Assembly (NCBI GenBank): GCA_014905635.1
Contig: JABVCE010000012.1
Coordinates: forward strand, 496,001-560,000
DNA length: 64,000 bases
Source: Scenedesmus sp. PABB004
Taxonomy: Eukaryota
Direction of reading: 5' to 3'
In this document: positions 24,601 through 62,486 of the stretch, piece by piece
Position numbering within the stretch: position 1 is the first letter of the stretch
How the letters are laid out: each line of letters begins with the position of its first letter
Made by a program: the position numbers and the translations under genes
The notes under the pieces: model-generated
Told to the model about the DNA's origin: nothing
What the model saw: the letters and a program-made list of their open reading frames with translations, nothing else
Database searches by the model: none

Positions 24601-26111
24601 AGCATGGCGTACGCGGCGGCCGCGGGCGCGGGCGAGCACCTGCCGTTCCTCAGCAAGCTGGAGAGCCTCGCCAGCAGCGCGGTGCGCTCCGCCGGCAACA
24701 CGGGCGCCGACCTAATCGTAGTGTACACCGCCACGGGTGAGCGCCGCGCCGCCGCCGCGCCGTCCCGGGCTGCGCGCCAGGGCGGCTTGCAGGACCGCGC
24801 GGCAGCGGCGCGCAGGACAGCGGCGCGACTCGCAGGACCGCGCGCGGGCGGCCGGCTGCCAGGCCTGCGCCGTGCGCCAGCAGGGCCGCGCTCGGCCGAC
24901 GCGCCGCGCCCGCCACACCGCGCCCGGCGCGCCGCGCGCCGTCAGGGCGCACCGCGCAGCTGGTGGCCAAGTACCGCCCGCCCATGCCCATCCTCACGCT
25001 CGTGGTGCCGCGGCTCATCAACGATGGAATCAAGTGGCGCCTCGAGGGCAGGTGCGCCGTGGCGCCGGGCGCTGGGTGCTGGCGGCACTGCGTCGCCCCC
25101 ACTGGCGCCGGCGCCGGCGCCGGCACCTCGCCCGCTGCCGTGCCCGCGCCCTGCTCACTCCGCCCGCGCGGCGCCGCCGCCAGGTCCACCGCGCGCGCGT
25201 GCCAGCTCACGCGCGGCCTGCTGCCCATGCTGGCCACGCCGGGGCCCAACGGCGACGCCGTGCTCGAGGCCGCGGTCATCCAGGCGGCGCTGGCGGGCCT
25301 CGTGGCGCCGCGGCACCACGTGGTCGTGCTGCAGCAGGTGCACGAGGATTTCTGCGTGAAGGTGCGCCGAGGCGCCGCCGGCCGGGGCCCTGCCGCGACC
25401 CGTGCACGGGCACCTGCGGCTTGCCTGTTCTGCGCCCGCGCGCCCGCCGCCCCACCACACACCGCTGCCCTCGCCCCCCTCGCTTCGGCAGGTGCTCAGC
25501 CTCGACGCGACCGGGCGGCGCGTGCTCGGCTCCAACCTGCGCCTGCCGACCGCGGCGCCGCGCAGCACGCTGCGCCGGACCGCCTCGCGCAGCAGCAGCA
25601 CGGGTGCGCGCCGCGTCGCAGCGCCGCGTCGCCGCGCACGCCGGCACCGCCGCGCCGCCGCTCCCTGTGCCGACGCGGTGCCTGGCGGCCGCTGCCCCCG
25701 GCGCTGCGCAGGCGCGCTCATCGACAGTGACGGCGAGGTGGACGAGGAGGACGCGGAGGAGGCGGAGGCGGACTACCTCTCGGCCAGCGACGGCAGCTTC
25801 CAGCAGTCGGCGTCGATGCTCTACGACCAAAACGTGAGCCAGCCGCCCGTCCGCGGCGGCACCGCCGACCGCCGACGCGCGCGCGAGCACGGGCCGGCCG
25901 CCGACGCGCGCGTGCGCCCGCGCGCCGCCCCCGCGCGCAGGCAGGCAAGGCCGCGCGCAGCGCGCTGAGCGCGCGCGGCGTGGCGGTGCCGGCGCTCAAG
26001 GCGGCCGGCCTGGGCGGCGCGCACAAGCCGGCGAGCCCCGACACGCCGATTCGGGGCAACTCGATTGACCAGAACTCCAAGCGCGTCACCATCAGCCTCG
26101 CCGACGCGTGA
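21700..26111 (+). CDS. PYK: Pyruvate kinase (plant cytosolic-type subfamily), tandem copy 1, multi-exon
   Basis: [88 protein letters not shown]; last exon ends ...VTISLADA* at 26111. Confidence 0.9.
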
Positions 26112-26981
26112 GAGGCTGCAACGGCGGCGCGCTGGCTGCACGCTCTGGTCCGAGCCCTGGGTTCACTCTACCGGCTTTTGACAGCGGGGCGCGGGATGCG
26201 GAGCGGGGGCGCGGCGGCGCTCCGAGCTCGCGAGGAGGCCGGGGAGCGCGCATGCGTGGCGGGGGCGGGCGCGTGCGTGTGGTGGTGTTTTTTTGTTGTG
26301 TGTTGCGTGGAGGCGGCCCCCGCCGACGGTTTTTGCTTGCCTGCACGCGCGCGCGTAGGGCGCACATCGATCGGTCTTCTTTTGAGGTCTGCACACACAA
26401 CGGCGCGCCGCGCCCCTCACGATCTGTCCAGCGTGCACGCGCCCAGCGCGCTACCCACGCCCTGCACTCACTCTGCACACGCACAGCCACCACGCACGCA
26501 CAACGCACGCAACGCACGGACCGGGCTGCGCGGTGAAGCGCGGGTTGATGAAGCGCGGCGGCACGACGCGCCGGCGGCGGACTGACGTGCAACACGCCTC
26601 ACGCGTGCGTGCCCCCGGCTCCCACGCACCCGCCCCTGGGCGCCTCCGTGACCGCGCAGCCGCCCTCGACAGCAACCTCGACAGCAGCAGGGCGGCCCCG
26701 CGCACTCGGGCGGCGTCTGGCCCCCTGCGCGCTCTCCGGCACCAAGCAAAGGAGTCTAAGTCGCCACCGCCAGCGCGCGACGCGCGTGGAGCAGCAGGTT
26801 AGCGGGGCGGGGCGCGCGCGACCGCGCATCGCGCCAGCGCCACTGCCGCCGATCCGGGCGCTGCGCCGCGCCGCTGCGCCCTCACGCGGTGCCAAAACTC
26901 TCGCTGGCATCGCCGGCTGCCAGCGTCAGGCCTGACGCCGCCCTTCGCCGCCGCCGCTGCTGCGCAGCAGCACACGCCGCG

Positions 26982-29900: not shown

Positions 29901-31374
29901 CGCCTGCCCACCGCCCCGCGCGCCCGCCCGCCGGCGCGTCCCGCGCAGGCGCCAAGCCCGGCGCCGGGCCGCAGTCCGAGCAGCTGCCCTTCCTGAGCAT
30001 GCTGGAGAGCCTCGCCAGCAGCGCGGTGCGCGTCGCGGGCAAGGTGGAGGCCGACCTGATCATCGTTTACACCGCCACGGGTGAGCCGACGCAGCACCGT
30101 TGATTGATTGGCCGCGCCCGCCGCGCCCTGTGCAGGGCCTGGCGGCGCGGCAGCGCGGCTGCGTGCGGCCGACGCGTCGCGGCCGCGCTCGGCCGACGCG
30201 CCGCGCCCGCCGCGCCGCGCCCGTCGCCGCGCGCCGTCAGGGCGCACCGCGCAGCTGGTGGCCAAGTACCGCCCGCCCATGCCCATCCTCACGCTCGTGG
30301 TGCCGCGCCTCATCAACGACGGCATCAAGTGGCGCCTCGAGGGCAGGTGCGCCGCGGTGCCGCGGCACCGGGCGCTTGGCAGTGAGTGCTGCGCTCCCGT
30401 GCCCAGCCGCGCCCACCTCACTCCGCCGCCGCGCCCCCGCCGCCAGGTCCACCGCGCGCGCGTGCCAGCTCACGCGCGGCCTGCTGCCCATGCTGGCCAC
30501 GCCGGGGCCCAACGGCGACGCCGTGCTCGAGGCCGCGGTCATCCAGGCGGCGCTGGCGGGCCTCGTGGCGCCGCGGCACCACGTGGTCGTGCTGCAGCAG
30601 ATTCACAACGACCTGTGTGTCAAGGTGGGGCCGGCGCACCGCCCCGCGCTGAGCGCTGCGCCGAGCGCGCCGGCGGCCGCCGCGGCGGTCCCCGTCGGGG
30701 CCGTTCACGCCCCGCCCCGCCTCTCACCCCTGCCTGCCCCCCCCCCTCCTCCACGCAAACACACGCACACGCACGCGCACGCGCACGCGCACGCGGCAGA
30801 TTCTCACGCTCGACGGCACGGGGCGTCGCGTGGCGGGGCCGCGCCGCGCGCGCGCGCCCGCGCCCGGCGGCCTCGTGCTCGGTGCCCTCTACCCCAAGTC
30901 GCCCGCGCCGCGCCTGCTCGCGCGCGCGGGGCGCGCCAGCACGGGTGCGCGAGTGCGCAAGCGCAGCCCCGCGGGGCGCCGCCCCGCCGCCGCCGGCGGC
31001 GCGCCTGAGCGCGGCGCGCCGCCGTGCCGCGCCGGCGCGCCCGCGCAGGCGCGCTGGTGGACAGCGAGGGCGACGAGGACGACGAGGACGAGGAGGGCGG
31101 GCTGTGGGGCGAGGCGCCGCTGCTGGCGGCGCTGGGCGACCTGCAGGCCTCCTGCAGCATCAGCTACGACGACGACGTGCGCGCGGCGCGGCGCGGCGCG
31201 GACGGCTGCGTGACGCGGGGGCGCCGCCGACGCGCGCATGCCGGCGGCCCGCCGCCGCCGCCGCCGCCGCCGCGCCCGCAGATGGGCCACGCCATCGCCG
31301 CCGTGCTGCGGCAGTCCCCCGGCCCGGCCAAGCCCGGCGGCGCCGGCGCCCAGGCGGCCGGCGCGCCCGCGTAG
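26982..31374 (+). CDS. PYK: Pyruvate kinase, tandem copy 2, multi-exon
   Basis: Same motifs and intron positions as copy 1; [10 protein letters not shown] motif; acidic C-terminal extension; stop at 31372-31374. Confidence 0.9.
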
Positions 31375-36437: not shown

Positions 36438-37519
36438 TCAGTCCGCGTCCGAGCTGAGCTGATCGAAATCCCAGTCCGGCTCGTCGTCCGGCGAGTCAGG
36501 CTGCGCCCGGATCCACGCGGCCAGGGCCTCGTGGCCGTTGCGCGCCGCCGCGCGCTCGCAATCGCCACGCTCCCACGCGCAGCCGTGTGCGCGCAGCCAG
36601 CGCAGCGCCTCCAGGTGCCCGTGCGCAGCCGCCACCCCACACGTCTGCTTGTCCCACGGCGCTGGCTCGGCCTGGGCACGCGCCCAGCGCAGCATCTGCA
36701 GGTCGCCGCGTGCCGTGGCGTAGAAGCACACCGCCTGGTCCCAGCGCAGCGGCGGCGTCCGCGCGCGCCCAGCGCAGCACCGCCAGCTGCCCCCCAGAGG
36801 CTGCTTCTTCGCACACGCCCTCCAGGTCCAGCCCCTGGTCGCGCGCCCACTGCAACACAGCGATGTGGCCAGTGCGCGCTGCTGCGTCGCACACGCCCCA
36901 CAGGTCCAGCCCCTCGCCGCGCGCCCACTCCAGCACAACAACCTGGCCGTGCTCCGCTGCTTGCCAGCACACACCGCGCAGGTCGCAACCCGCGCGGCGC
37001 AGCCAGGCCAGCCCCGCCACGTCGCCGCACGCTGTGCGCGCCCCTTTCAGACGCCACTGCCGCCGCTCGTCATCCTGCACCGCCGGCCAGGCCTCCTGCA
37101 CCGCCGCCAGCGGCAGGTCGGGGCAGCGCAGCGAGATGACCTCGGCGCCGCGGAAGCGCTCGCGCGCGGCCTTGCAGACCAGCTTGGCGGCCCACGCCCG
37201 CAGGGCCGGCGGCAGGAAGCTCAGGACGTGGAGCACGAGCGGCTCGGGCAGCTCTGGCAGCAGGCTGGCAGCGGGGCGGGCAGGCAGTGGGTGGGGCAGG
37301 CGGCAGTGCGGTGAGGACGCGCCTGATGCCGGCGGTGGTGGCTTGCGGGCAGCGCGTGCCGCGCCAGGCAGCACCAGCCAGCGGGCACCAGCAGCAGCGG
37401 ACGCACCTCGGCGCCGCCTCCGCCCCAGCCGGTGCCTCGCCTCCCACCGCCGCTGCGGCTGCCGCGTGCGCGCCCGCAGTCGGCCCGGCGCGCCGCTTGC
37501 CCGCCGGCGCAGCTGACAT
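36438..37519 (-). pseudogene. F-box-like/ankyrin protein, copy D; frameshift near 36760
   Basis: [19 protein letters not shown] in ORF 36496..38316 and the C-terminal repeats in ORF 36438..36974. The frame changes within a GC-dinucleotide run that is shorter than in the paralogs. Confidence 0.7.
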
Positions 37520-38233
37520 GGTGCCACCTGACAGCCGCGGGCCACTAGGGAGCAGCAGGCGGGGCGCCGGCAGCAGCGGGCGAGCGCGCGGGCGGCGTGA
37601 GCGCGGCAGCAGCGGCAGCAGCGCGTGGCGCCCGCCCCCGCCCCAGCGCGGCGGCGCGGCGGCGGGCCCGCCAGCGGCGCCCGGGGCGCACAGGCCCAGC
37701 GGCCCACGCGCGACACGCCCGCCCGCCGCGCAGCGCCGCTGCCCCGCCGCCCGCAGCGGGCGCCGCGCAGCGCGGCTCGCCCGCCCGATGCTCCCCTCAC
37801 CGCCTGCCTGCGCGCCTGGCTCGCCTGGCGCTGCGCTGGGCGGGACGATCCAGTCACCAGGCGTCCGCAGGTCCGCGCCTCGTCTCGCCAGAGGCGCGCC
37901 GCGGGCGGGCGCGGGCGCTGGGCTGCAGCGGCACGGCGCGTGCGGGAGCTGTGCGGGCTGCGGCCGGCGCTTGTGCGTGTGCGTGTGTGGCAGGGGCGCT
38001 GTGGGCGGCGGCTGTGTGGGCGGCGGGGAGCCTCCTCGGCGGCGGCGCGGGCAGCCGGCCGGGCGGCGCCTGCGCCCTGGCCCTGCACCGCCGCCGCTCG
38101 CGGCTGCCGGGCGGGTGCTGGTCGGCGAGCCCGGAAAGCAACCCCTCTTCTTACACACGCATGCAGGCGGCTGCCAACACAACGGCCACGACCTGGTGCC
38201 ACGCACCCCCCGACGCCCGCCTCGGCGCCCGAC

Positions 38234-42941: not shown

Positions 42942-43069
42942 CTGAGCTGGGCGCAGCCGGCGGCCGGGCCGGCGCGCGAGGATGCAACATTGACTGCGTT
43001 AACGCTGTCGCGTGCCACGAGGTCGCATCAACGCCGCTGGTTGCCCCGCGCGCGGGGCAACCTGCGTCG

Positions 43070-43815
43070 CGCGACGCAGGCTGCGCCCGGATCCACGCGA
43101 CCACCGCCGCGTGGCCGTTTTCCGCCGCCCAATACTCGCACTGACCGCGCCGCCACGGGCAGCCGTGTGCGCGCAGCCAGCGCAGCGCCTCCAGCTGCCC
43201 CACATTAGCGGCTATTCTCCAGCGCGGCGAGTGCTCCCCAGATCACACCATAGCAACAATACAAGCTGGGCCATGATGCAGCCGGCGCCGTGCAGCCAGG
43301 CCAGCCCCGCCACGTCGCGGCACGCCGCGCGCGCCCTGGCCAGCTGGTCCTGCCGCTCCCCATCACCCTGCACCGCCCGCCGCGCCTCCTGCACCGCCGC
43401 CAGCGGCAGCTCGGGGCAGCACAGCGAGACGACCGTGGCGCCCCGGAAGCGCTCGCGTGCTGCCTTGCAGACCAGCTTGGCGGCCCACGCCTGCAGGGCC
43501 GGCGGCAGCAAGCTCAGGGCGTGGAGCACGAGCGGCTCGGGCAGGTCCCGCCAGACGCTACTGGCGCGGCAGAGCGCAGCGGGCGGGGCGGGCAGGCGAG
43601 CGCGGTGAGGCGGCGCCTGCTGCGGGCGGTGGTGGCTTGTGGCAGCGCGTGCCGCGCCAGGCAGCACCAGCCAGGGGACACCGGCAGCAGCAGCAGCGGA
43701 CGCACCTCGGCGCCACCTCCGCCCCAGCCGGCGCATCGCCTCCCACCGCCGCTGCTGCCGCAAGCGCGCTCGTGGTCGGCCCGGCGCGCCGCTTGCCCGC
43801 CGGCGCAGCAGACAT
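43070..43815 (-). pseudogene. F-box-like/ankyrin protein, copy E; internally deleted, premature stop
   Basis: F-box-like motif and first repeat present; the middle repeats are replaced by ~70 bp of unrelated sequence (43203-43275) with a stop at 43212; C-terminal [16 protein letters not shown] remnant follows. Confidence 0.75.
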
Positions 43816-44834
43816 GGTGGCGCCTGACAGCCTGCGGGCCAGCAGGGAGCAGGGGGCGGGGCACCGGCAGCAGCGGGCAAGCGCGCGGGCGGCGTGAGCG
43901 CGGCAGCAGCAGCGCGCGGCGCCCCTGCAGGGGCAGCTGCCCCACGGCGCGGCGGCGCGGCGGTGGGCCTGCCAGCGTCACCCGGGACGCGCAGGCCCGG
44001 CGGAACACGCGACACGCCCGCCCGCGCACCGCCGGAGCCCCCGCCGCCCGCAGCGGGCGCCGCGCAGCGCGGCCCGCCCGCCCGCTGCTGCCCTCCCCGC
44101 CTGCCCGCGCGCGCGGCTCGCCTGGCGCTGCGCTGGGAGGCACGATCCAGTCACCGGGCGCCCGCAGGTCCGCGCCCAGCCTGGCCAGGGCCGCGCCGCG
44201 GGCGGCGGCGGGCGCTGCAATTTGAACGGCGGCGGCGCGGCGCGGTGCGTGCGGGAGCTGTGTGGGGAGCGGCCGGCGCTTGCACGTGTGTGGCAGGGAC
44301 GGCTGAGGGCGGCGGCTGTGGGCGGCGGGGCGGCGCGCGGGAGGCCTCCTCGGCGGCGGCGCGGGCAGCCGGCCGGGCGGCGCCCGCGCCCTGGGCCCTG
44401 CACCGCCGCCCGCGTGGCGCGGCTGCCCGGCGCGGGCCGGCGCCGCCGCCAGGTTGGCCAGTTGCCGAGCGCACCCCTCGCTACCGCCACCAACTCGCCG
44501 TCAGCTCGCCGCCGACTGCTACTCGCCGGCCGCCGCCACAGCAGCTCACACGCGCGCGCAGCCCCTGCTACTCTTCAAGCCCACACGCCTGCACAGGCAG
44601 CCTCAGTTTGATGCTGATCTAGTCAAATCCGGCCCCGGCGGGCCGCGCAATTGGGTTGGGACACTATCCACCTCCACGCCCAGATGGTGACACACACGCA
44701 CACGATGGCCAGTGCCGCGGTCTGACTCCTGCTGCTCGCACCCAGCTCCTGCCTGCCTGCCGGCCTGCCGACCTGCTTGCCCGTCGCTGCCCTGCCGCTG
44801 CCGCGGCGCACGCCGCACAGCCCGCCACGGCCGG

Positions 44835-46113
44835 TCAGCACTTGAAGTCGCGCGGGAGTGTCTGTGGCGTGAAGAACTCGGCCGCCAGCTCGTCGCGGGT
44901 CACGAAGCGCACGAGCGCCGCGTACTTGCGGAGCAGCGGCTTGAACGCCTCCCACGGCCCCTTGAAGATCCACGGCGCGTCCACAAACAGCACCGCGCCC
45001 ACCCTGCGCGGCGGCGGGCCGGCGCGCGGACGCGGGCCGGCGGCGGGGCGGGGGCCGGGTCGGCGCGCGCCGGCGCGCACGCGCCGAGGCGGCGGCGGAC
45101 ACGCGGCGGCGCCGGCGGCGGCCGCGGCGTCAGCAAAGACGCACCGGCGGGGGAAGTAGAGCGGCACGGTGTCGAGCACAAAGGCCACAAACGCGAGGTC
45201 CAGGTTGGCCAGGCTGATGCCCGAGAGGTCGACGACCCACAGCAGCTGCTCCGCGCCGCCGCCGCCGCCGGGCGGCAGCCGCGCCAGCGCGCTGTCGAGC
45301 ATGTACGTGCACAGCCGCTTGCTGTCGTCGAGCGGGAACGCGCCTGCCGGGCGCGTGGGGCGGGGAGGGCGCGCGGTCGGCGGCGGCGGCGGCGGCAGCG
45401 GTGGCAGCACGCGGCTGCTGCGCGGCTGCTGCGCGGCTGCTGCGCGGCTGCTGCGCGGCTGCTGCGCAGCGTGCGCGCTGCAGCGCGGCGCCGCGGGCGG
45501 GCGCGGCGCGGTCGCGCGCGCACCGATGGTGTGCCGCGCCGCCCGCACGACCACGACTGGCCGGCCGGCCGCGTCGGGCGCGTCGTGCAGGTAGGCCTTG
45601 CCGCTGGCCGCCTCGGCCGCCACGTCGCCGTGCGACAGGTCGGCCAGGCCATGCGCCGCGCGCCAGGCCAGCATCGCGCGCACCGCGCGCGCCGCCGGCG
45701 CGGGCTGCAGCGCGCTGTCGCGCAGCCACCACTTCAGGCTCTCCTCGTCGGGGCAGCCGTGCGGGTCGCCCGCCAGCTCGTCCTGCAGCGCGCGCAGCGC
45801 CTGGCGGGGCGGCGCGGGGGCCGGCGTCGGCGCGCGTGCGCGCCGGGCCCAAGCCCGCCGCCCGCGCCGCCGCCGCCGCCCGCGCCGCCGCCGCCGCCGG
45901 CGCCGCCGCGGCGCGCACCTCCTGCTCGGACGGCTGCTCAAAGGCGCAGGGCGGCGGCGGCGCAAAGTCCGAGTGCAGCGGCGGCGCCGCGGCCGCGGCC
46001 GGCGCGGCGGCGCGCGGGCTGCCGGCGCTGCCGCTGCGGCTCAGGCGCGCGCGCAGTCCCGCCCACGGCCCGGCAGCCGGCTCGCGCGGCGGGGGCGGCG
46101 CGAGCGCGGCCAT
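44835..46113 (-). CDS. CRAL-TRIO (Sec14-like) lipid-binding protein, paralog 1
   Basis: CPDEESLKWWLRD, GKAYLHDAPDAAGRPVVVVRAARH, VVDLSGISLANLD, YFPRR, VLFVDAPWIFKGPW...KYAALVRFV. Confidence 0.88.
45410..45465. repeat. Intronic 11-bp tandem repeat (GCGGCTGCTGC) x5
   Basis: Directly visible in the CRAL-TRIO paralog 1 intron. Confidence 0.85.
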
Positions 46114-46492
46114 CTCGCCAGGACGGTTGGCGAGCGCGCCTGCCGAGAGTGGTTGCTTCGCGAAAAGGAGGCCTCTCGACCGGCCGGCGAGCTTTTGTGT
46201 GCGCGGAGATTGCGAGGAGACTGAAGCGGCGGGCGGGGCGGTGCGGAGGAGGCGCAGCGCGCACATCGGCGCGAGCATGCCGCGCGACTGCTCGGTGCCC
46301 GCCGCGTTTCCTGTGCTCAAGACGCCGCGGCGCCGTGGCTGTGCGCGTCAGATGTAATGATCAAGATCACGAGGCCGAGCGCCGGCGGGCGCCTGCACTC
46401 ACGCGAGATGCTGGCCGCCGCCGCCGCCGCGCGACCGACGGCACTGCGCCCGTGCGTGTCCCAGCACGGCTCGGCGCCCGCGCGCGGCCGCT

Positions 46493-47921
46493 TCAGGCGG
46501 CAAAGTCGCGCGGCAGGGTCTCGGGCGTGAAGAACTCGGCCGCCAGCTCGTCGCGGGTCACGAAGCGCACGAGCGCCGCGTACTTGCGCAGCAGCGGCTT
46601 GATGAGCTCCCACGGCCCCTTGAAGATCCACGGCGCGTCGACCAGCAGCACCTGGCCCATCCTGCGCGCCGCGGCGGCGCGCGCCGCACGGGACGGCCGG
46701 CGGCCGTCGGCGCCCGCCCCGCCCGCCGCGCGCCCCTCGTGCGACCCCCGCGCCGCGCTCGCCGCCCGGCGCCGCGCCTCTCTCCCTGTCCCTCTCTGCC
46801 TCCCTGCCTCGCCCCTCTCCCTGTCCCTCCCTGCCCTCCCCGGCTGCCGTGCCGGCTCACCGGCGGGGGTAGTACACGAAGAAGGCATCGACCATGAACG
46901 CGACAAAGGGGAGGTCGATGTTGGACAGGCTGATGCCGCGCAGGTCGATCACGCCCAGCAGCTGCTCCCCGCCCGGCGGCAGCCGCGCCAGCGCGGCGTC
47001 GAGCGTGTACGTGCACAGGCGCTTGCTGTCGTCGAGCGGGAACGCGCCTGCCACAGGGCGCGCGGGGCGGGGAGGGCGCGCACAGGGCTCGGGGGCGGGC
47101 GCCGCGGTTGGCGGCGGCGGCGGCGGCGGCGGGGTTGAAGGGTTCAGGGGCGCACCGATGGTGTGCTGCTTCGCGCGGATGAGCAGCACGGGGCGGCCAT
47201 AGACGTCCAGCGAGTCGTGCACGACCGACTTGCCCGTCGCCGCCTCAGCCGCGACGTCCTCCGCAGAGATGTGCCCCGCCCTGCGGCGGCGCGGCGCGGT
47301 GGCGGGCGCGGCGTCGGCGGCGGCGCTGGCGCAACGGCGCGGACGCGGCGGGCTCCGCGTCGGCGGTGCGCCCGGCCCGGCCGCACGGGGGGCGCGCGCC
47401 TGAACGCGGTGCGCCAGGCCAGCGTGGCGCGGAGCTTCTGCTCCGCCTCTGCCACGTCAAAGTAGCTGCGGGCGAGGCGGCGGCAGCGGGCTGTGCGCAG
47501 CCGCCCGCAGCGGCGCGGCACGTCCTGCCGGCCAGCCGGCGCGGGGCGCACCGGTCGCGCAGGTACCAGCGCAGCGTGTCGGCGTCGGGGCACTCCGCGC
47601 CGCCCGCCGACATGCGCGCCGTGAGCTGCTCCAGCGCCTGCGCGGGCGGCGGCGGGCGGCGTGGCAGCCCAGCCGGCCCGGCCAGCGGCCCGCGCGGCAG
47701 CAGCACCGGCCGCTGCACGCACGGTGCCGCCGCGGCGCGCCGCGCACCTGCTGCTGCTCTGGCGTGCCGCTCCAGGGCATAGGGGCCAGGCCCGGTGCCT
47801 CCGCGGCCACCGCCCCCGCGCGGCGGGCCCACATGCGGGCGCTGGCGGGCTGGGCGCTGGCTGCTGCTCGGGGCGCGCGGCAGGCGCGCAGCACGGGGCC
47901 CGACGCCGTCCGGGCCAACAT
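46493..47921 (-). CDS. CRAL-TRIO (Sec14-like) protein, paralog 2, possible plastid transit peptide
   Basis: MLARTASGPVLRACRAPR..., CPDADTLRWYLRDR, DVYGRPVLLIRAKQH, VIDLRGISLSNID, YYPRRMGQVLLVDAPWIF. Confidence 0.88.
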
Positions 47922-49756: not shown

Positions 49757-50193
49757 TGCGGTGCGGCGCGGGCGCGGCAGCAACGGGCGCGGTGAGGCGA
49801 CGACGTGCGTTCGGCGGGCGGTCGAGGACTGCGGCGGCAGCGGCGCGGCGGCGAGAGCGTGTGGCGCCGGGGGCTGTGCGTGCGGCGGTGCGGGCACGGC
49901 GGGGAGGCTGAACTAAGGAGTCTCCTCGCAACACCCTAGTGTGCGCGGAGGCGCGTGATCGCGGCTGGGCGCGGCCCGTCGCTCGCCTTGGTCAGCCATG
50001 CGCGCGCGTTGAGAGCGGCGCGCGTGTGGGACACGCTGCGGTGGAACTGGCTGCGCGATGCCCCAACCTGGCGCGCCGGCCTGGAGGAGGCCGCGTCGCC
50101 GGCGCCGCGCGGCGCGTTGCTCGCGGGGCGAGCGCGGTGAGGCTCCGGAACAGCCGCGACGCTCGCTCGCCGCCGGCTTCCACACCGCCGCCG

Positions 50194-51513
50194 CTAGCGC
50201 CCGCTGCCGCCGCCGCCGCCCGCCAGCGCGCACCCGCCGCCGGGCCGGGCCTTGGCGCCCGCGCGCGGCACCGTGCCCGACGTCGTCGCAGCGGCGCCCG
50301 CCGCCATCGCCGCCGGCCCGGCCGGCGGCGCCGCTGGGTGCACGTTCTCGACCATCGACTGCGCGCGGGCGAGCCCCGCCTGCACGGCGAGCCAGAGCAG
50401 GGAGTAGAGCATGTAGGCCGACAGCAGAACGCCGCCCGCGATGGCCAGCACCGCGAGCAGCGCGCCGAGCGCGACGCAGCACTCGCCGCCCGCGCCCGCG
50501 CTCGCGAGGCACTCTCCGAGCAGCGGCGCGCCGCCGCCGCCGCCGCCGTCGAGGCAGAGCAGGCAGCAGGGGCAGCAGCTCGCGTCGGGCAGCAGCGCGG
50601 CGCCGGGCAGCCCGCACGCGCGGCCCGCGAGCAGCGCCGCGCTGGTGGCGAGCCCGAGCAGGCCCAGCGTCACCACGCCGTTGAGCACGTGCACCACGCC
50701 GTACGGGACCAGCAGCTCGCCGCCGCCGCGGCCGCCGCGGCCGCCGCCGCCCGGCGCGGGGCTGCCGGGCGGCGGGCCCGGCGCGGGCGACGCGCCCGGG
50801 CCACCGCTGCCGCCGCCGTCGCTGCTGGTGGTGAAGAGCGCGTCTGTGATGGGCACAAAGCCGGCCAGAAAGACCGCGCCAGACATCAGCACGGCGAAGA
50901 GCACAGCCAGCGTCGCGGGGCTGCCCAGCAGGCTCGCCCACCAGAGGCGGCGATACTGATACCTGCGCGCGCGCGCCGGCGGCGGCACGAGCGGCGGCGG
51001 CGTCTGCGCGACCGCGGCCACGGCTGCGCCCGGTGGCGGGGGCGCCGCCGCCTGGCCCCCGGTGGGCGCGCCGTGTGCCGCGCTGCGCAGGCGCCGCCTG
51101 CGACGCGCCTGAACTTGCACACTTCGCACTCAAAGCAGGCGTCCGCGCGGTGCGCGCTGTCGCGCCAGTGCTGCAGACACTGCCGGTGCACGTGCCTGCG
51201 CGCGGCGGCCGAGGCGGCGGCGCCATGGGCGGCGGCCGTGGCCCCGGGGCGCGGAAGCGCGGCCGAGCGCGCGCCTGCAAGCGCGGTCCGCGCTTGCACA
51301 CCGCGAGCTGCCCGAGCAGAGGCAGGGGCAGATGAGGGGGTTGCCTGGGTCGGCCGGGCTGCGCAGGTCATCCTGCTCAAGGCAGATGCGGCACGTGCCC
51401 AGCGCCTCCGGCGGCGGCGCGTCTGGCTCGACCTGCAGCACCAGCTCCTCTGCGCCCGCGGCGCCGCCGCGCTGGAAGCGCTTGGCGAGCAGCGGCGCCG
51501 CCTCTCCCTCCAT
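50194..51513 (-). CDS. RING-CH (RINGv/MARCH-type) membrane E3 ubiquitin ligase, 3 exons
   Basis: CRICLEQDD...LICPCLCSGSSR|HVHRQCLQHW...CEVCKF (C4HC3), followed by hydrophobic TM segments. Confidence 0.88.
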
Positions 51514-52143
51514 GGCCGCGCGCGCCGCTGCCGCGGGCGCCGGGCGGGCCTGCGTGGCAGCGGCAGCAGCGGCGGTGAGCGCCGAAGGCAGCGCCGCGCC
51601 CAGCCCGCGCCGCGGCACACGCAGCAGCACACGGGCACCGCATGCGCGTCGTCCAGCGGCCAGGCGGGGCGCGCCCGCGGCCCCTGGCGCCCGCACGCCG
51701 CCGCCGCGTGCGCTGCTGCCCCGCACCGCGCACGCCTCGCTGCGCACCGGCTGCGGGACGGGCGCGCGGTGAGGGCGTGAGGACGTGCAAGGCGGGCCCG
51801 ACAGGCCGTGCCGCGGCCCCTGCTGCCGGCGGGCTGCGCGCGTGGCGGGCGTGCGGCGGGCCGCCGCCGGCGGCGCTCGCCTCGCGCGGCGTCGGCGCGT
51901 GTGGGGCAGCGCGCGAGCTGCTGAGGCGGTTGTGTGTGTGTGTGTGTGTGATGCTGTGGCACTAGCGACTGGTTGTGGGGTGCGCCGCCTGAACCGCGCT
52001 GCGCCTGACGACGCAGCGGCCTCGCCGCGCGATGCAACACACGCGCCCAGCGTCGCTTACACCAGCAGCCGCTGAGCCGCGCGAGTGACCGGCACGCGCC
52101 CGATCGCCGCCACTTCAACTGTCAACGCGCCCGCACGGCCAGG

Positions 52144-53221
52144 TCAGCGGCCGTCGTCGGGCGCGGCCGGCTGCGCCTGGATCCACGCGACCACCGCGTC
52201 GTGGCCGTTGTCCGCTGCGCCTCGCTCACACCATGCGCGACGCCACGGGCAGCCGTTGGCGCGCAGCCAGCGCAGCGCCTCCAGGTGCCCGTGCGCAGCC
52301 GCCGCCCGGCCCGCCCGCCCGTCCCACGGCGCGGGCTCGTCCTGGGCGCGCGCCCAGCGCAGCATCTCCAGGTCGCCGCGCTGCGCAGCAAAGTAGCACA
52401 CACCGATGTCCCAGTGCACCGGCGGCGTCTGCGCGCGCGCCCAGCGCAGCACCGCCAGCTGCCCCCAAGAGGCTGCTCCTCCGCACACGTCCCGCAGGGG
52501 GAGTCCCGCGCCGCGCGCCCACTCCAGCACGGCGAGCTGGCCATGCTGTGCTGCTGCCGGGCACACGTCCCACAGGTCGAGCCCCTCGCCGCGCGCCCAC
52601 TCCAGCACTGCGAGCTGGCCATGCTTTGCTGCTTCTGCCCAGCAAACAAAGCCCATGCTGCAGCCGGCGCCGTGCAGCCAGGCCAGCCCCGCCACGTCGC
52701 CGCACGCCGCGCGCGCCGTGACCAGCTGCCGCTGCAGCTGCTGCTGCTGCCACCCGGCACCCTGCACCGCCCGCCGCGCCTCCTGCACCGCCGCCAGCGG
52801 CAGCTCGGGGCAGCGCAGCGAGACGACCTTGGCGCCGCCGAAGCGCTCGCGCGCCGCCTTGCAGACCAGCTTGGCGGCCCACGCCCGCAGGGCCGTTGGC
52901 CAGAGGCTCAGGACGTCGAGCACGAGCGGCTCGGGCAGCTCCGGCAGCAGGGCGCTGGCAGCAGGGCGGGCAGGCAGTGAGCGGGGCGGGCGGCGAGCGG
53001 TGAGGCGGCGCCTGCTGCCAGCGGTGGTGGCTTGCGGGCAGCGCGTGCGGCCGCGTGCGGCGCCGGGCACCAGCCAGGGGACACCGGAAGCAGCAGCAGC
53101 GGACACACCTCGGCGCCGCCTCCGCCCCAGCCGGCGCCTCGCCTGCCGGCGCTGCTGCTGCCGCCGCACGCGCGCGCATGGTCGGCCCGGCGCGCCGCTT
53201 GCCCGCCGGCGCAGCAGACAT
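52144..53221 (-). CDS. F-box-like/ankyrin-repeat protein, copy F
   Basis: MSAAPAGKRR exon; LLPELPEPLVLDVLSLWP; ankyrin-like repeats; TGTAA at 52057-52061 (-). Confidence 0.8.
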
Positions 53222-53892
53222 GGTGCAGCCTGACAGCCTGCGGGCCATCAGGGAGCAGCAGGCGGGGCGCCGGCAGCAGCGGGCGAGCGCGCGCGGGCGG
53301 CGTGAGCGGGGCAGCAGCAGCGCGCGGCGCCCGCCCCCCCGGCGCGGCGCGGCGGCGGGCCTGCCAGCGGCGTCCCGGGCGTGCATGCCCAGCGATCCAT
53401 GCGACACGCCCGCCCGACGCGCCGCACCGCTGCCCCCGCCGCCCCAGCGGGCGCCGCGCAGCGCGGCCCGCCCGCCGCTGCCCTCCGCCTGCCCCCGCGC
53501 CCGGCTCGCCTGGCGCCGCGCTGGGCGGCACGGCCTAGTCTCCAGGCGCCCGCAGGTCCGCGCCCCGCCTGGCCAGGGGCGCGCCGCGGGCGGGGGCGGG
53601 CGCGGGCAGCGGCGGCGGCGGTGTGCGCGGGAGCTGTGGGCGGCGCAGCCGGCGCTTGTGTGCGTGTGTGGCAGGGGCGCTGAGGGCGGCGGCTGTGGGT
53701 GGCGGCGGGGCGGCGCGCGCGCGGGGGTCCTCGGCGGCGGCGCGGGCAGCTGGCCGGGCGGCGCCTGCGCCCTGCGCCCTGCACCGCCGCCCGCGTGCCG
53801 CGGCTGCCGGGACGGCGCGGGCCGGCGCCGCCGCCAGTTGCCGAGCGCGCCCCTCACTACCGCCACCAACTCGCCGTCAGCTCGCCCGCTGA

Positions 53893-54652
53893 CGGGCGCG
53901 GGCGGCGAGTGCTGCGTCGCGCTCGGCGCGCTGCTCGCGGTGCTGGCCATCGCGGGCGGCGTGCTGCTGTCGGCCTACATGCTCTACTCCCTGCTCTGGC
54001 TCGCCGTGCAGGCGGGGCTCGCCCGCGCGCAGTCGATGGTCGAGAACGTGCACCCACCCGCCGCCGCCGGCCGGGCCGGCGGCAACGGCGGCGAGCGCCG
54101 CTGCGACGGCGGCGGGCGCCGCTGCAACGACGTCGGGACCGGCGCCGCGCGCGGGCGCCAAGCCCCGGCCCGGCGGGGGCGCGCGCCGGCGGGCGGCGGC
54201 GGCGGCGGCAGCGGGCGCTAGCGGCGGTGTGCAAGCCGGCGTCGAGCGAGCGTCGCGGCTGTTCCGGCGCCTCACCGCGCTCGCCCCTCAAGCAACGCGC
54301 CGCGCGGCGCCGGCGACGCGGCCTCCTCCAGGCCGGCGCGCCAGGTTGGGGCATCGCGCAGCCAGTTCCACCGCAGCGTGTCCCACACGCGCGCCGCTCT
54401 CAACGCGCGCGCATGGCTGACCGGGGGGAGCGACGGGCCACGCCCAGCCGCGATCACGCGCCTCCGCGCACACTAGGGTGTTGCGAGGAGACTCCTTAGT
54501 TCAGCCTCCCCGCCGTGCCCGCACCGCCGCGCGCACAGCCCCCGGCGCCACACGCTCTCGCCGCCGCGCCGCTGCCGCCGCAGTCCTCGACCGCCCGCCG
54601 AACGCACGTCGTCGCCTCACCGCGCCCGCTGCTGCCGCGCGCCGCGCCGCAC
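53893..54652 (+). pseudogene. Inverted duplicate of 49761-50498 (3' end of the RING-CH gene plus downstream intergenic DNA)
   Basis: Encodes GAGGECCVALGALLAVLAIAGGVLLSAYMLYSLLWLAVQAGLARAQSMVENVHP, as in the RING gene; the reverse-complement match continues through the noncoding CTAGGGTGTTGCGAGGAGACTCCTTAGTTCAG. Confidence 0.9.
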
Positions 54653-54723: not shown

Positions 54724-55726
54724 TCAGGGGTCCCCGTCGTCGTGCGCGGCCGGCTGCGCCTGGATCCACGCGACCACCGCGTCGTGGCCGTTGTCCGCCG
54801 CGCCTCGCTCACACCATGCGCGACGCCACGGGCAGCCGTTGGCGCGCAGCCAGCGCAGCGCCTCCAGCTGCCCGTGCGCAGCCGCCGCCCGGCCCGCCCG
54901 CCCGTCCCACGGCGCGGGCTCGTCCTGGGCGCGCGCCCAGCGCAGCATCTCCAGGTCGCCGCGCTGCGCAGCAAAGTAGCACACACCGATGTCCCAGTGC
55001 ACCGGCGGCGTCTGCGCGCGCGCCCAGCGCAGCACCGCCAGCTGCCCCCAAGAGGCTGCTCCTCCGCACACGCCCCACAGTTCCAGCCCCTCACCGCGCG
55101 CCCACTCCAGCACAGCAACCTGGCCGGCACGCCCTGCTTCCAACCCAACCCAGTCCATGTTGCAGCCGGCGCCGCGCAGCCAGGCCAGCCCGGCCACGTC
55201 GCCGCACGCCGCGCACGCATTGGCCAGCAGCCCCTGCCGCCACCAAGCATCACCCTGCACTGCCCGCCACGCCTCCTGCACCGCCGCGAGCGGCAGCTCG
55301 GGGCAGCGCAGCGAGACGACCTTGGCGCTGTGGAAGCGCTCGCGCGCGGCCTTGCAGACCAGCTTGGCGGCCCACGCCCGCAGGGCCGGCGGCAGAAAGC
55401 TCAGGATGTGCAGCACGAGCGGCTCGGGCAGCTCTGGCAGCAGGGAGCTGGCGGCGCGGCGGGGCGCGGCGGGCGGGCGGCGACGGTGAGGCAGCGCGCG
55501 GCACGTGCTGGACCTGGCTGTGGCTCGCTGCTCAGCGCGCGCCTGGCCAGCAGCAGCCGGGGCGCTCCCAGCAGCAGCAGCGAGCGCCCTACCTCGCCGC
55601 CTCCTTGCCAGCGCCAGCCACCGCCGCCTTGCGCTGCGCTGCCGCTGGCGCCGCCGCGCTCGCTGCGGCGGCCCTGGCGCGCGTGGTCGGCCCGGCGTGC
55701 CGCTTGCCGTCTGGCGCAGCTGACAT
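54724..55726 (-). CDS. F-box-like/ankyrin-repeat protein, copy G
   Basis: MSAAPDGKRH exon; [20 protein letters not shown]-terminal half almost identical to copy F. Confidence 0.8.
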
Positions 55727-56406
55727 GGTGCCACCTGACAGCCTGCGGGCCAGCAGGGAGCAGGGGGAGGCGCCGGCGGCGCGGCGAGCGGCGCGGCGTG
55801 AGCGCGGGCGGCAGCAGCAGCGCCAGGCGCCCCCGCCCCGGCGCGGCGGTGCGGCGGTGGGCCTGCCAGCGGCACCCGGGGCGCGCAGGCCCCGCGGCCC
55901 AGGCCACACGCCCGCCCGCCGCGCACCGCCGGTGCCCCCCGCCGCCCGCAGCGGGCGCTGCGCACGCGGCGTGCCCGCCCGCTGCTGCCCTCCCCGCCTG
56001 CCCGCGCGCGCGGCTCGCCTGGCGCTGCGCTGGAAGGCACGATCCAGTCACCAGGCGCCCGCAGGTCCGCGCCCCGCCTGGCCAGGGCGCGCCGCGGGCG
56101 AGGGGGCGGGCGCTGGGCGGCGGCGGCGCGGTGCGTGCGGGAGCTGTGCGGGCTGCGGCCGGCGCTTGTGCGTGTGCGTGTGTGGCAGGGGGGCGAGGGC
56201 GGCGGCTGTGTGGGCGGCGGGACGGCGCGCGCGGGGGGCCTCCTCGGCGGCGGCGCGGGCAGCCGGCCGGGCGGCGCCTGCGCCCTGGGCCCTGCACCGC
56301 CGCCCGCTGCGGCACGCGCGGGCCGGCTGTGCGCGTTCAGCCTGTCAACAGGTTGCCAGCGCGCGCCGCGTCCGTCGCGCCCCGCACGACCCCCGCGCGG
56401 CACGCG

Positions 56407-58388: not shown

Positions 58389-58440
58389 GGCCGTGCTGAG
58401 ACAATGGTCACCTCCCAGCAGCCTAGAAGACCCCAGCGGC

Positions 58441-59075
58441 TCCATGGCCGCGCGCGCCGCTGCCGCGGGCGCCGGGCGGGCCTGCGTGGCAGCGGCAGCA
58501 GCGGCGGTGAGCGCCGAAGGCAGCGCCGCGCCCAGCCCGCGCCCCGGCACACGCAGCAGCACACGGCACCGCATGCGCGTCGTCCAGCGGCCAGGCGGGG
58601 CGCGCCCGCGGCCCCTGGCGGCGCCCGCACGCCGCCGCTGCTGCCCTGCACCGCGCACGCCTCGCTGCGCACCGGCTGCGGACGGGCGCGCGGTGAGGGC
58701 GTGAGGACGTGCAAGGCGGGCCCGACAGGCCGTGCCGCGGGCGCTGCTGCTGCCGGCGGGCTGCGCGCGTGGCGGGCGTGCGGCGGCGCTCGCCTCGCGC
58801 GGCGTCGGCGCGCGTGTGCGGCAGCGCGCGCGTGCTGCTGAGGCGGGTGTGTGTGTGATGCTGTGGCATTAAACGAGCGACTGGTTGTGGGGTGCGCCGC
58901 CTGAACCGCGCTGCGCCTGACGACGCAGCGGCCTCGCCGCGCGATGCAACACACGCGCCCAGCGTCGCTTACACCAGCAGCCGCTGGGCCGCGCGAGTGA
59001 CCGGCACGCGCGCAATGGCCGCCACTTCAACTGTCCACGCGCCCGCACGGCCAGGTCAGGGGTCCCCGTCGTCGT
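58441..59075. repeat. Direct duplicate of ~51509-52160 (RING-CH start codon/5' region plus ankyrin-gene 3' UTR)
   Basis: Near-identical from TCCATGGCCGCGCGCGCCGCTGCCGCGGGCGCC through GCCGCCACTTCAACTGTC...GGCCAGGTCAG. Confidence 0.9.
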
Positions 59076-60043
59076 GCGCGGCCGGCTGCGCCCGGATCCA
59101 CGCGACCACCGCCTCGTGGCGTCTGCGCGCCGCGCCTCGCTCACAGTCGACGCGACGCCACGGGCAGCCGCCGGCGCGCAGCCAGCGCAGCGTCTCCAGG
59201 TGCCCGCCCTCAGCCGCCTGCCTGCACGGGCCCTTGCCCCACGGCGCGGGCTCGGCCTGGGCGCGCGCCCAGCGCAGCATCTCCAGGTCGCCGCGCCCTG
59301 CGGCAATGAAGCACACGCCAAGCACCTTGTCGCCCCACGGCAGCGGTGGCGTCTGCGCGCGCGCCCAGCGCAGCACGCCCAGCTGCCCGCCCACGGCTGC
59401 TGCAAAGCACACGCAGCTCAGGTCCAGCCCATCGCCGCGCGCCCACTCCAGCACGGCGATGTGGCCGGCTAGCGCTGCTGCCCAGACCACGCCGTGCGCC
59501 ATGGTGCCCACATAGTGGTGATAAAAATCGCCCAAGTCGCAGCCGGCGCCGCGCAGCCAGGCCAGCCCCGCCACGTCGCCGCACGCCGCGCGCGCCTTGG
59601 CCAGCCACTGCTGCTGCCAACTGCCACCCTGCACCGCCCGCCAGGCCTCCTGCACCGTCGCGAGCGGCAGCTCGGGGCAGCGCAGCGAGACGACGGTGGC
59701 GCCTCGGAAGCGCTCGCGCGCCGCCTTGCAGACCAGCTTGGCGGCCCACGCCTGCAGGGCCGGCGACAGGAAGCTCAGGACGTGGAGCACGAGCGGCTCG
59801 GGCAGCTCCGGCAGCGGGCTGCGGGCGACGCGGGCGGCGCGGGCGGGCGGGCGGGCGGGCGGGTGCGGCGGTGAGGCAGCGCGCGGCGCGTGCTGGAGCT
59901 GGCCGTGGCTCGCTGCTCAGTGCCCGCGCGACCAGGAGCGGCAGCCGGGGCGCCCCCAGCAGCAGCAGAGCGCCCCACCTCGGCTCGTCCCCAGTGCCGC
60001 GCGCCGCCGCCTCGCGCTGTGCTGCCGACGGCGCAGCAGACAT
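59056..60043 (-). CDS. F-box-like/ankyrin-repeat protein, copy H
   Basis: MSAAPSAAQREAAARGTGDEPR exon; [18 protein letters not shown]; repeats ending ...AHDDGDP*; TGTAA at 58969-58973 (-). Confidence 0.8.
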
Positions 60044-60903
60044 GGCGCCACCTGACAGCCTGCGGGCCACCAGGGAGCAGCAGGCGGGGCACCGGCAGCA
60101 GCGGGCGAGCGCGGCGTGAGCGGAGCAGCAGGGGTTCAGGAGCGCGGCGCCCGCCCTTGCCCCGGCGTGGCACGCGGCGGCGGGCCTGCCTGCCAGCGGC
60201 GCCCCGGGCGTGCATGCCCAGCGGTCCATGCGACACGCCCGCCCGCCGCGCACCGCCGCTGCCCCCGCCGCACGCAGCGGGCGCCGCGCTGCGCGGCCCG
60301 CCCGCCGCTGCCCTCCGCCTGCCCCCGCGCGCCCGGCTCGCCTGGCGCTGACCTGGGCGGCACGGCCTAGTCTCCAGGCGCCCGCAGGTCCGCGCCCCGC
60401 CTGGCCAGGGGCGCGCCGCGGGCGGGGGCGGGCGCGGCGCGGCGGCGGCGTGGTGCGCGCGGGAGCTGTGGGCGGCGAGGCCGGCGCTTGCGTGCGTGTG
60501 CGTGTGTGGCAGGGGTGCTGAGGGCGGCGGCTGTGGGTGGCGGCGGGGCGGCACGCGCGGGGGCCTCCTCGGCGGCGGCGCGGGCAGCCGGCCGGGCCGC
60601 GCCTGCGCCCTGGGCCCTGCACCGCCGCCCGCGTGCCGCGCGGGTGCCGGGCGCGGCGCGGAGGAGGCGGCGTGCCGCCGCCGCCAGCGCCCGGTGACGG
60701 CGCGGGTGCGCGACCCGCCCAGGAGCGCTGCGTGCGCGGTGTGCCGGTTGCCAGCGCGCCGCCTCCCCGCCGCCAACTTCCGCTCCCTCGCCACGCGCGC
60801 ACGCACGCATCACGCCGCAGGCAGCGCCCCAGGCACACGCGCGCGCCCAGCCACGGGCGGCCTGCCTGGCCTCACCTAAATCTCAGTCGGCGTCTGAGCT
60901 GAG

Positions 60904-61854
60904 CTAATAGAATCCCCAGTCCGGCTCGTCGTCGGGCGCGGTCGGCTGCGCCCGGATCCACGCGACCATGGCCTCGTGGCCGTTGCGCGCCGCGCGCTCG
61001 CAATCGCCACGCTCCCACGGGCAGCCGTTGGCGCGCAGCCAGCGCAGCGCCTCCAGCTGCCCGTTCACAGCCGCCGCCCAGCACACAAGCTTGCCCCAAG
61101 GCGCGGGCTCGGCCTGGGCGCGCGCCCAGCGCAGCATCTCCACGTCGCCGCGCCCTGCGGCGTTGTGGCACACGCTGCCCCACGGCAGCGGCGGCGTCTG
61201 CGCGCGCGCCCAGCGCAGCACCGCCAGCTGCCCGCCCACGGCTGCTGCCTCGCACACGCGCCTCAGGTCCAGCCCCTCGCCGCGCGCCCACTCCAGCACG
61301 GCGATCTGGCCTGCCCGCGCCGCTTCCCAGACCACGCTGTCATGCACTGCATACACGACGCCCATGCTGCAGCCGGTGACGCGCAGCCAGGCCAGGCCCG
61401 CCACGTCCCCGCACACAGCGCGCGCCTTGGCCAGCCGCGACTGCCGCCCTGGCTCATCCTGCATCGCCTGCCAAGCCTCCTGCACCGCCGCGAGCGGCAG
61501 CTCGGGGCAGGCTGCTGAGACCACTGTGGCGCCGCGGAAGCGCTCGCGCGCCGCCTTGCAGACCAGCTTGGCAGCCCACGCCTGCAGGGCCGGCGGCAGG
61601 AAGCTCAGGACGTGGAGCACGAGCGGCTCGGGCAGGTCCCGCCACAGGGAGCTGGCGTCGCAGGCGGGGCGCGCCGGGCGGGCGGGTGCGGCAGTGAGGC
61701 AGCGCGCGGCGCGTGCTGGAGCTGGCTGCCGCTCCCTGCTCAGCGCCCTGGCCGGCAGCAGCAGCTGCAGGCATCGCCAGCGCGCCCACCTCGGCTCGTC
61801 CCCAGCGCCGCACGCCGCCACCTCGCGTTGCGCTGCCGCCGGCGCAGCAGACAT
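60904..61854 (-). CDS. F-box-like/ankyrin-repeat protein, copy I
   Basis: [41 protein letters not shown]; ends ...PDDEPDWGFY*. Confidence 0.8.
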   Translation of the reverse strand: MSAAPAAAQREVAACGAGDEPRWARWRCLQLLLPARALSRERQPAPARAARCLTAAPARPARPACDASSLWRDLPEPLVLHVLSFLPPALQAWAAKLVCKAARERFRGATVVSAACPELPLAAVQEAWQAMQDEPGRQSRLAKARAVCGDVAGLAWLRVTGCSMGVVYAVHDSVVWEAARAGQIAVLEWARGEGLDLRRVCEAAAVGGQLAVLRWARAQTPPLPWGSVCHNAAGRGDVEMLRWARAQAEPAPWGKLVCWAAAVNGQLEALRWLRANGCPWERGDCERAARNGHEAMVAWIRAQPTAPDDEPDWGFY

Positions 61855-62486
61855 GGTGGCCCCCGACAGCCTGCGGGCCAGCAGGGAGCAGGGGGCGGGG
61901 CGCCTACAGCAGCGGGCGAGCGCGCGGGCGGCGTGAGCGCAGCAGCAGCAGCGCGCGGCGCCCGCCCCCGCCCCGGCGCGGCGGCGCGGCGGCGGGCCTT
62001 CCAGCGGCGCCCGGGCCGCGCAGGCCCAGCGGCCCACGCGACGCGCCCGCCCGCCGCGCACCGCCGGAGCCCCCGCCGCCCGCAGCGGGCGCCGCGCAGC
62101 GCTGCCCGCCCGCTGCTGCCCTCCCCGCCTGCCCGCGCGCGGCTCGCCTGGTGCTGCGCTGGGCGGCACGGCCTGGTCTCCAGGCGTCCGCAGGCCCGCG
62201 CCCCGCCTGGCCAGGGGCGCGCGGCGGGCGGGGGCGGCCGCTGGGCGGCGCAGCGCGTGCGGGAGCTGTGTCGGCCGCGGCTGGTGCTTGTGCGTGTGCG
62301 CGTGTGGCAGGGGGGCTGAAGGCTGCGGCTGTGGGTGGCGGCGGGGCGGCGCGCGCGGGGGCCTCCTCGGCGGCGGCGCAGGCAGGCGGTCGGGCGGCGC
62401 CTGCGCCCTGGGCCCTGCACCGCCGCTCGCCGCGGCCGGGGCACGGCTCGGGCGGTCGCGGTCGCGGGCTGTTGCAGTCGCGCGCG

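Follow-up and report, generated by a model that had tools for sequence, protein, structure and literature searches.

Families of fast-evolving F-box genes have been described in nematodes and plants. In the FTH and FBA families of C. elegans and in the plant families the expansion is clustered, the F-box is under purifying selection and the substrate-binding domain is positively selected (Thomas 2006, as cited in PMC8120010). A function in defence has been proposed for them and is largely unproven. The family described here, from the GC-rich green alga Scenedesmus, shares the clustered expansion, the purifying selection on the F-box and the positively selected binding domain, but its binding domain consists of a short stack of ankyrin repeats, the organism is unicellular, the copies are interleaved with ordinary genes on one chromosome arm, and a single Skp1 locus was found.

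The layout of the array recalls the NCL family of Chlamydomonas, a species-specific family of repeat proteins with 43 of 49 genes in ∼460 kb of one arm and with diversification reported as ongoing (PMC9940879, PMC8226300). Placement on one arm, species specificity and diversification are common to both, although the NCLs are RNA-binding and the present genes are intron-containing and encode F-box-ankyrin proteins. The wtf genes of S. pombe are likewise described as intron-bearing genes that are over-represented on one chromosome, have spread through duplication of DNA and undergo non-allelic conversion (PMC6526906), and the algal family resembles them in each of these respects; it differs in belonging to another protein class and in showing neither LTR association nor a poison product.

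At the protein level, the fungal HNWD/NLR and brown-algal NB-ARC-TPR/ROCO proteins are reported to combine a few hypervariable positions per repeat with diversifying selection, repeat gain and loss, and exchange (PMC13449251). A few hypervariable positions in each repeat, with diversifying selection acting on them, repeat gain and loss and intergenic exchange are also seen here; in contrast to these receptors, the present proteins have no NTPase or cell-death domain, one exon holds all of the repeats, and repeats within a gene are not near-identical, the diversity lying between paralogs. Giant viruses are reported to carry expansions of variable ankyrin genes (PMC5871332), and proteins of Pandoravirus, Cedratvirus and Bodo saltans virus are the best structural matches to the family (E 6e-9, 21–34% identity). 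Unlike the viral genes, the array has spliceosomal-type introns, host GC content and host neighbors, and its nearest N-terminal relatives are algal (older copies in the host and a Tetradesmus protein) or unnamed. The closest engineered parallel is the designed ankyrin library ANK-N5C, for which randomization of positions 10 and 13 is reported (PMC4308713). The algal repeats share with such DARPins a fixed scaffold and variability at positions 10 and 13 and in the preceding loop, but lack about six beta-finger residues and vary also at positions 9 and 14. Chlorophytes are thought to be poor in intracellular immune receptors (PMC13315243), and a search of main texts found no description of the present family.

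Anatomy of copy H and organization of the window

The window, the whole 64,000-nt stretch analyzed here, corresponds to C5:496001-560000, where C5 is the contig. It contains nine copies of an intron-bearing gene encoding an F-box and ankyrin repeats, A to I, the ninth being the broken copy E. All features of copy H lie on the minus strand, where the reading frame at 59056-59916 codes for an F-box-like motif and, after it, for short ankyrin repeats. The predicted first exon (59979–60043) has an ATG and 21 codons, and is followed by a predicted phase-2 GT-AG intron that is retained family-wide (59819–59978) and by exon 2 (59056–59818), which encodes the F-box, a linker, an N-cap, four short ankyrin repeats and a C-cap, and ends with the stop codon. 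The F-box-like motif itself (59707–59814) is under purifying selection and would form the interface with Skp1. Upstream lie the 5′ head of the duplicated unit, a conserved non-coding stretch and putative promoter and 5′ UTR (60044–60623), and the spacer between the tandem copies I and H (60624–60903), which is homologous to the spacers at other tandem junctions.

Variability in copy H is found at residues 70, 73, 74 and 77 on a face of the N-cap helix (59596–59619), in the loop and helix 1 of repeat 1 (59460–59545), and in blocks of repeat 2 (59392–59418; the strongest single-repeat signal, omega 4–5), repeat 3 (59296–59331), repeat 4 (59206–59238) and the C-cap (59122–59157). The repeat 1 loop carries a 12-codon insertion that is predicted to form a beta-hairpin. 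Two read sets, X1 and X2, contribute small shares and cover short pieces only; because a 156-nt contig from X2, an independent metagenome run, matches 59390–59545 with zero differences, the loop of copy H is not an assembly artefact. An X2 contig also aligns to 60943–61221 with 40 differences clustered at variable codons, and comes from another paralog or allele.

A preliminary description of this DNA had quoted eight strings, all of which are present in the window, and had remarked that some variable codons are AT-rich for this genome. This is borne out: the quoted 18-mer has 28% GC in a window of 75–83% GC, and helix-1 variable codons have a lower GC content than the scaffold both at third positions (0.78 versus 0.94) and at positions 1 and 2 (0.60 versus 0.70). 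To that account the present analysis adds the F-box and the intron, the size that the family has in the genome as a whole, and the exchange of blocks between paralogs.

The remaining copies are on the minus strand with the exception of C. Copy A (10635–12215) is open, lies just beyond the end of a FATC-domain kinase gene, and is in tandem with B (12519–14045), in which exon 2 is frameshifted at a G12 run and exon 1 is out of phase. Copy C (19457–21049, plus strand) has an open exon 2 with an extra repeat and an out-of-phase exon 1. Exon 2 is frameshifted in D (36483–38089) and broken by an internal deletion in E (43029–44404). Copies F (52144–53785; open, with an extra repeat), G (54724–56298; open) and I (60904–62421; open and in tandem with H) complete the set. 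The preliminary description held that the variable segment differs in every copy, which is not so for every repeat: F and G have three blocks in common and are 99% identical over 339 nt. Copy F is a mosaic, with one block as in the copy at C5:590 kb, 3′ blocks as in G and a 3′ flank as in H, and the repeat 1 block of copy I is almost identical to that of the copy at C5:579 kb.

The neighbors in the window are ordinary genes (52 frames scanned), encoding a FAT/PI3K/FATC kinase, two pyruvate kinases, and proteins with CRAL-TRIO, LRR, SH3 and SnoaL domains. The pyruvate kinase genes are a tandem pair (21720–30643, 77–84% identical), CRAL-TRIO exons are duplicated at 44845–47456, and the DNA between copies G and F is present as an inverted duplication (49761–50498 and 53893–54652, 93% identical). 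The 3′ flanks of F (51508–52087) and H (58440–58999) are 90% identical over ∼600 nt, and the match stops right after an ATG with which two different downstream frames begin, one of them SnoaL-like; possibly a promoter was carried along with a copy and set before another gene.

Domains, predicted fold and Skp1 docking

Ank_4 was detected in all 41 aligned family members, and the domain search of these members returned only ankyrin and F-box families, with no NACHT or NB-ARC. A receptor of the NLR/HNWD type was rejected in the absence of either domain. The AlphaFold model of copy H has a mean pLDDT of 86, falling to 50–70 over the F-box, and superimposes on a DARPin with a Z score of 18.4 and an rmsd of 3.2 over 171 aligned residues; in a structure search, ankyrin proteins of Pandoravirus and Cedratvirus gave better E-values than the ankyrin and DARPin structures. 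The VCxxAAxxG motif aligns to the PLHxAAxxG of DARPins, although the family repeats are shorter by the ∼six beta-finger residues and do not have the full 33-residue period.

In copy H the F-box scores 18.6 bits, below the Pfam cut-off of 24.3; a match at E≤0.01 was obtained in 15 of 31 family rows, and the usual Trp at the end of the domain is missing. A profile of the N-terminal region has the F-box of FBXO2 as its best match among solved structures (2e31, E 0.008), and the F-box of MAX2 was also aligned. When residues 1–96 were modeled together with host Skp1 (P0113), the predicted complex scored 0.87 and the best of three controls 0.01, with contacts agreeing at ≥96% between runs and a partner pLDDT of ≥81. 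Among microbial pairs, 51 of 78 solved ones and 2 of 108 mismatched ones attain the mark used for such scores; for eukaryotes the figures are 39 of 65 and 2 of 126. Skp1 and the F-box are a textbook pair whose complexes have been solved, so that this result speaks for likeness to known complexes and not for binding. A single Skp1 locus was found (C77:1179.5 kb, L101) despite the F-box expansion. The copies are very probably SCF adaptors and would have a ligase function.

Variability and selection on the binding face

The selection analysis used the 36 standard-length copies among 52 initially scored as open (the other 16 differ in repeat number), over 227 of 260 codon columns and with long insertions removed. 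Our MG94 code matches the IQ-TREE likelihood, the site models used M0 branch proportions with a fitted scale, and the site classes were drawn after the alignment was seen. In these 36 copies the amino-acid entropy is 2.3–3.9 bits at most loop and helix-1 positions and close to 0 at many positions of the scaffold, a profile that recurs when the copies are split at random into halves (rho 0.77–0.82, 8 splits). The variability is thus concentrated, as the preliminary description had it, and not spread uniformly.

Comparison of M8 with M8a gives a 2ΔlnL of 476 with F3x4 frequencies (omega 3.6, 15% of sites), 651 with genome-level frequencies and 229 with multi-hit changes. When neutral evolution was simulated with local mutation doubled and genealogies shuffled, the grid LRT took false values of 80–173 in 12 of 12 runs (observed, 531), so the M8-type test is unsafe on its own. 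Its omega of 3–4 also overstates the effect, because the synonymous rate is itself raised at variable codons: dS is 27 in helix-1 codons and 12 in helix 2, or 18 and 12.5 with multi-hit. Measured against their own dS, the 20 helix-1 codons nevertheless have an omega of 2.1–2.4 (p<1e-7, 36 copies); the scaffold classes are at 0.18–0.58 and the F-box at 0.34–0.57, both purifying. Neutral simulations of this class test, with and without shuffled genealogies, reached a maximum omega of 1.53 in 100 runs. On the same tree the intron has accumulated 6.2–7.9 substitutions per site and four-fold sites 6.1, and codon positions 1, 2 and 3 of helix 1 have accumulated 18, 22 and 14; helix-1 codons therefore change ∼3 times faster than the intron. 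Among 718 helix-1 codons, Pro occurs once (36 expected from base composition), Trp 40 times (17 expected) and Phe 30 times (11 expected); the zero stops, with 25 expected, are so by construction, only open copies having been used.

With site-specific dS, a posterior of P≥0.9 is reached at 8 (single-hit) or 10 (multi-hit) of 227 sites, and 84–94 sites are purifying. Most of the best-supported sites fall at ankyrin positions 10 and 13; across five repeats the signal keeps one ankyrin register. Sites chosen in one half of the copies and tested in the other gave omega values of 1.13–2.97, with an LRT above 3.84 in 5 of 8 splits, and repeat-by-repeat analysis with local trees was significant in repeat 2 and the C-cap only. 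For repeat 1 alone, omega is 2.0 with the global tree and 1.5, not significant, with a local tree, and the loop within 59460–59545, insertions excluded, is at 1.3–1.9 and significant in one of three models. Positive selection on the binding face, as the preliminary description proposed, is consequently upheld for helix 1, where the site-wise dN/dS check that it suggested gives values above 1, and is weak for the loop. We hold with high confidence that the binding face is under diversifying selection; for the family this is well supported, the effect is of moderate size, and it is weakest in the quoted loop.

Size, layout and integrity of the family

A motif search of the whole genome found 77 matches, of which 71 lie on C5. 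Searching C5:30,001-728,000 and six stretches around outlying matches with tblastn gave 83 loci, which comprise 81 family loci (77 on C5 and 4 elsewhere), counting the two halves of one split copy separately, and two divergent genes on C7; a divergent query recovered three further older relatives with 37–51% identity. The 77 loci on C5 lie within 680 kb of one chromosome arm, and occur as 44 singles, 15 pairs and one triple, the pairs being head-to-tail. Seventy-four units occupy 23% of C5:100-640 kb. Non-tandem neighboring copies are in the same and in opposite orientation equally often (27:27), the DNA between units is mostly unique, and the copies are interleaved with ordinary genes. The GC content is host-like throughout (0.76–0.82). 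A giant endogenous viral element or proviral block was rejected on this GC content, on the host-type neighbors and on the presence of introns. We found no telomere repeats at either end of C5 when a subtelomeric position was checked; three interstitial telomere-type repeats are present at C5:673818 (L088), ∼45 kb past the dense part of the array. On C5 the observed/expected ratio of CpG is 1.02 in units and 1.20 in flanks, and that of TpG 1.72 and 1.27, which coding content may explain.

All units have the same plan. A short exon 1 follows the conserved 5′ non-coding head, and a phase-2 intron of ∼110–170 nt separates it from a single exon for the rest; database gene models P0002 and P0003 join the two exons likewise in other copies. 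A KRRAG-type exon 1, unlike that of copy H, was seen in 58 of the 83 loci checked and an LSLxGL type in 7. The C-terminal tails are variable and acidic (37% D/E). Of the 81 family loci, 53 have an open exon 2; in the others it is frameshifted (19), partial (8) or interrupted by a stop (1), so that 28 of 81 are broken or partial. A check of ATG, donor and acceptor was passed by 43 of the 53 loci with an open exon 2, the other 10 failing in exon 1; at least 43 family loci thus look intact, and some frameshifts in G runs or GC dinucleotide runs may be assembly errors.

How copies and blocks arise

Close pairs of copies are mosaics, in which hundreds of identical bases give way to whole differing blocks. 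Tracts of ≥200 nt at ≥96% identity are shared by 5 of 3240 pairs, four of these lying within 30 kb, and a near-identical 36-nt variable block is shared by 17 of 3240 pairs, in 12 cases only one block, with none in permutations; block typing mislabeled some repeats, and the counts of sharing alone were used. There are 68 distinct blocks among 72 from repeat 1. The farther apart two copies lie on C5, the less similar is their non-coding sequence (Mantel r 0.42 and 0.32, p 0.001), whereas helix-1 sites show no similarity-distance trend along this contig. Repeat number varies among copies. Ten long repeat 1 loops were listed, all of them multiples of three and resembling, by eye, local duplications of loop codons; for the insertion of copy H, no donor was found elsewhere in the genome with ≤3 mismatches allowed.

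At 24 places a 5′ head lies directly behind a copy, and at least 21 of these share a spacer motif (by eye). Eleven sites on C5, in the interval from 58 to 405 kb, have a head but no gene, and at 8 of these the head comes directly after a copy. Since heads and spacers trail copies in this way, we conclude that head-to-tail arrangements served as templates for copying, with ragged ends. Upstream and downstream spacer lengths, which would add up to one unit under a circular intermediate, show no negative correlation among the 13 usable copies, whose alignments are noisy. Poly(A) tails were found in 0 of 58 cases, and there was no signal of terminal inverted repeats or target duplications; the two flanks of a given copy have no more direct or inverted sequence in common than mismatched pairs of flanks do. 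We therefore rejected a transposable element or retrocopy, the introns also being kept. None of 33 reverse transcriptase matches, itself a lower bound, is inside the array, and a diversity-generating retroelement was set aside on this ground and for want of a template for the one insertion tested. Copying by recombination or repair would account for these patterns. At C5:108-121 kb (L031-L033) we note a very recent inverted duplication of part of a copy (685 nt, 99.85% identical), adjoining the copy that is split into opposite-strand halves.

Kinship of the family

The N-terminal domain has 64 matches at E≤0.001 among 1.84 billion representatives, and the ten that were looked up are two long fused Scenedesmus models, one Tetradesmus F-box protein and seven unnamed proteins from assemblies. 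The tree of this domain is star-like, for which reason we claim no order of events; the family falls on one side of a weakly supported branch (74/88, with the bootstrap unsettled). The N-terminal matches, together with the older copies in the host genome, point to descent from an algal gene.

Interpretation

We propose that the copies encode SCF substrate receptors diversified for binding with a foreign protein as the driver, and would put the probability of this reading as a whole at roughly 55%. The N-terminal F-box would dock on host Skp1, and the short ankyrin stack would grip its target via the helix-1/loop face. An older algal F-box-ankyrin gene may have been amplified at the DNA level as a head-to-tail unit of ∼1.85 kb that spread locally through one arm of C5, with new binding surfaces arising by selected amino-acid change in helix 1, by in-frame loop insertions and by repeat gain or loss. 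Repeat-sized blocks would be exchanged between nearby paralogs, and many copies would die; intact copies are presumably expressed. The best reading of the repertoire is as a parallel to the fast F-box families of nematodes and plants, with the ankyrin stack as binding domain. Defence against pathogens is the most likely driver, and the selecting protein would on balance be that of a virus or parasite. Tentatively, the array might even be a natural DARPin-like library of ∼45–50 adaptors, an intracellular immune repertoire that delivers the proteins of invaders to the proteasome and mirrors the F-box-ankyrin proteins of giant viruses.

The main rival to pathogen defence is genetic conflict or self/non-self recognition. 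In the manner of S-locus F-box sets or wtf antidotes, every copy would degrade a target of its own, whether a selfish toxin, the product of a driver or a gamete protein recognized as non-self. At plant S-loci, linked F-box genes reportedly act by the dozen in non-self recognition. The confinement to one arm, the kept introns, the arrangement in singles and pairs, the non-allelic conversion and the dead copies also parallel wtf as reported (PMC6526906). However, there is no candidate toxin partner among the 52 frames scanned in the window, none of four RWP-RK matches is on C5 (a MID gene could be missed), the GC content is host-like throughout, and no second, poison-like product is evident; we consider genetic conflict unlikely. 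It is less probable still that selection is real and serves new host or environmental substrates, that is, regulatory diversification with no antagonist. The basic KRRAG motif of most first exons could direct copies to the nucleus, and genomic-drift models of plant F-box families are said to exist; yet nearly every copy has a distinct block (68 of 72 in repeat 1), a turnover above what stable targets would need.

That there has been no adaptation, the surface of redundant copies being unconstrained and local mutation with GC-constrained synonymous sites imitating an omega above 1, is improbable, albeit with several points in its favor. dS is raised at and beside the variable codons, doubled local mutation deceives M8-type tests, the half-sample and per-repeat results are weak, and about half of the loci are broken or doubtful. 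What speaks against it is that dN is higher than dS in the very same codons, to a degree seen in none of the 100 neutral simulations (saturated ones included), that helix 1 outpaces the intron about threefold, that Pro is purged and aromatics are enriched, and that the signal holds one ankyrin register over five repeats. An active programmed diversifier, rewriting the variable codons by template- or reverse transcriptase-driven hypermutation, would suit the improved fit with multi-nucleotide changes, the low transition bias at variable codons and the clustering of changes in close pairs. We give it very little credence, given a dS far below dN, a loop that is unchanged in an independent sample, insertions that resemble local duplications of loop codons (by eye), the missing donor for the insertion of copy H (≤3 mismatches) and an array with none of the 33 reverse transcriptase matches inside it.

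If the family consists of substrate receptors as we propose, compact genes with a single coding intron and a mapped, selected binding face offer a direct handle on the targets recognized, and a microbe becomes available in which to test the long-standing and mostly unexamined proposal that fast-evolving F-box families serve to destroy foreign proteins. Were genetic conflict true, the array would be a wtf-like system in an alga. The short ankyrin scaffold also provides natural data on how much variation a paratope tolerates. Families of this kind can be overlooked in databases, where the two long models checked, P0228 and P0230 (1372 and 1486 residues), hold family domains and apparently fuse copies with neighboring genes.
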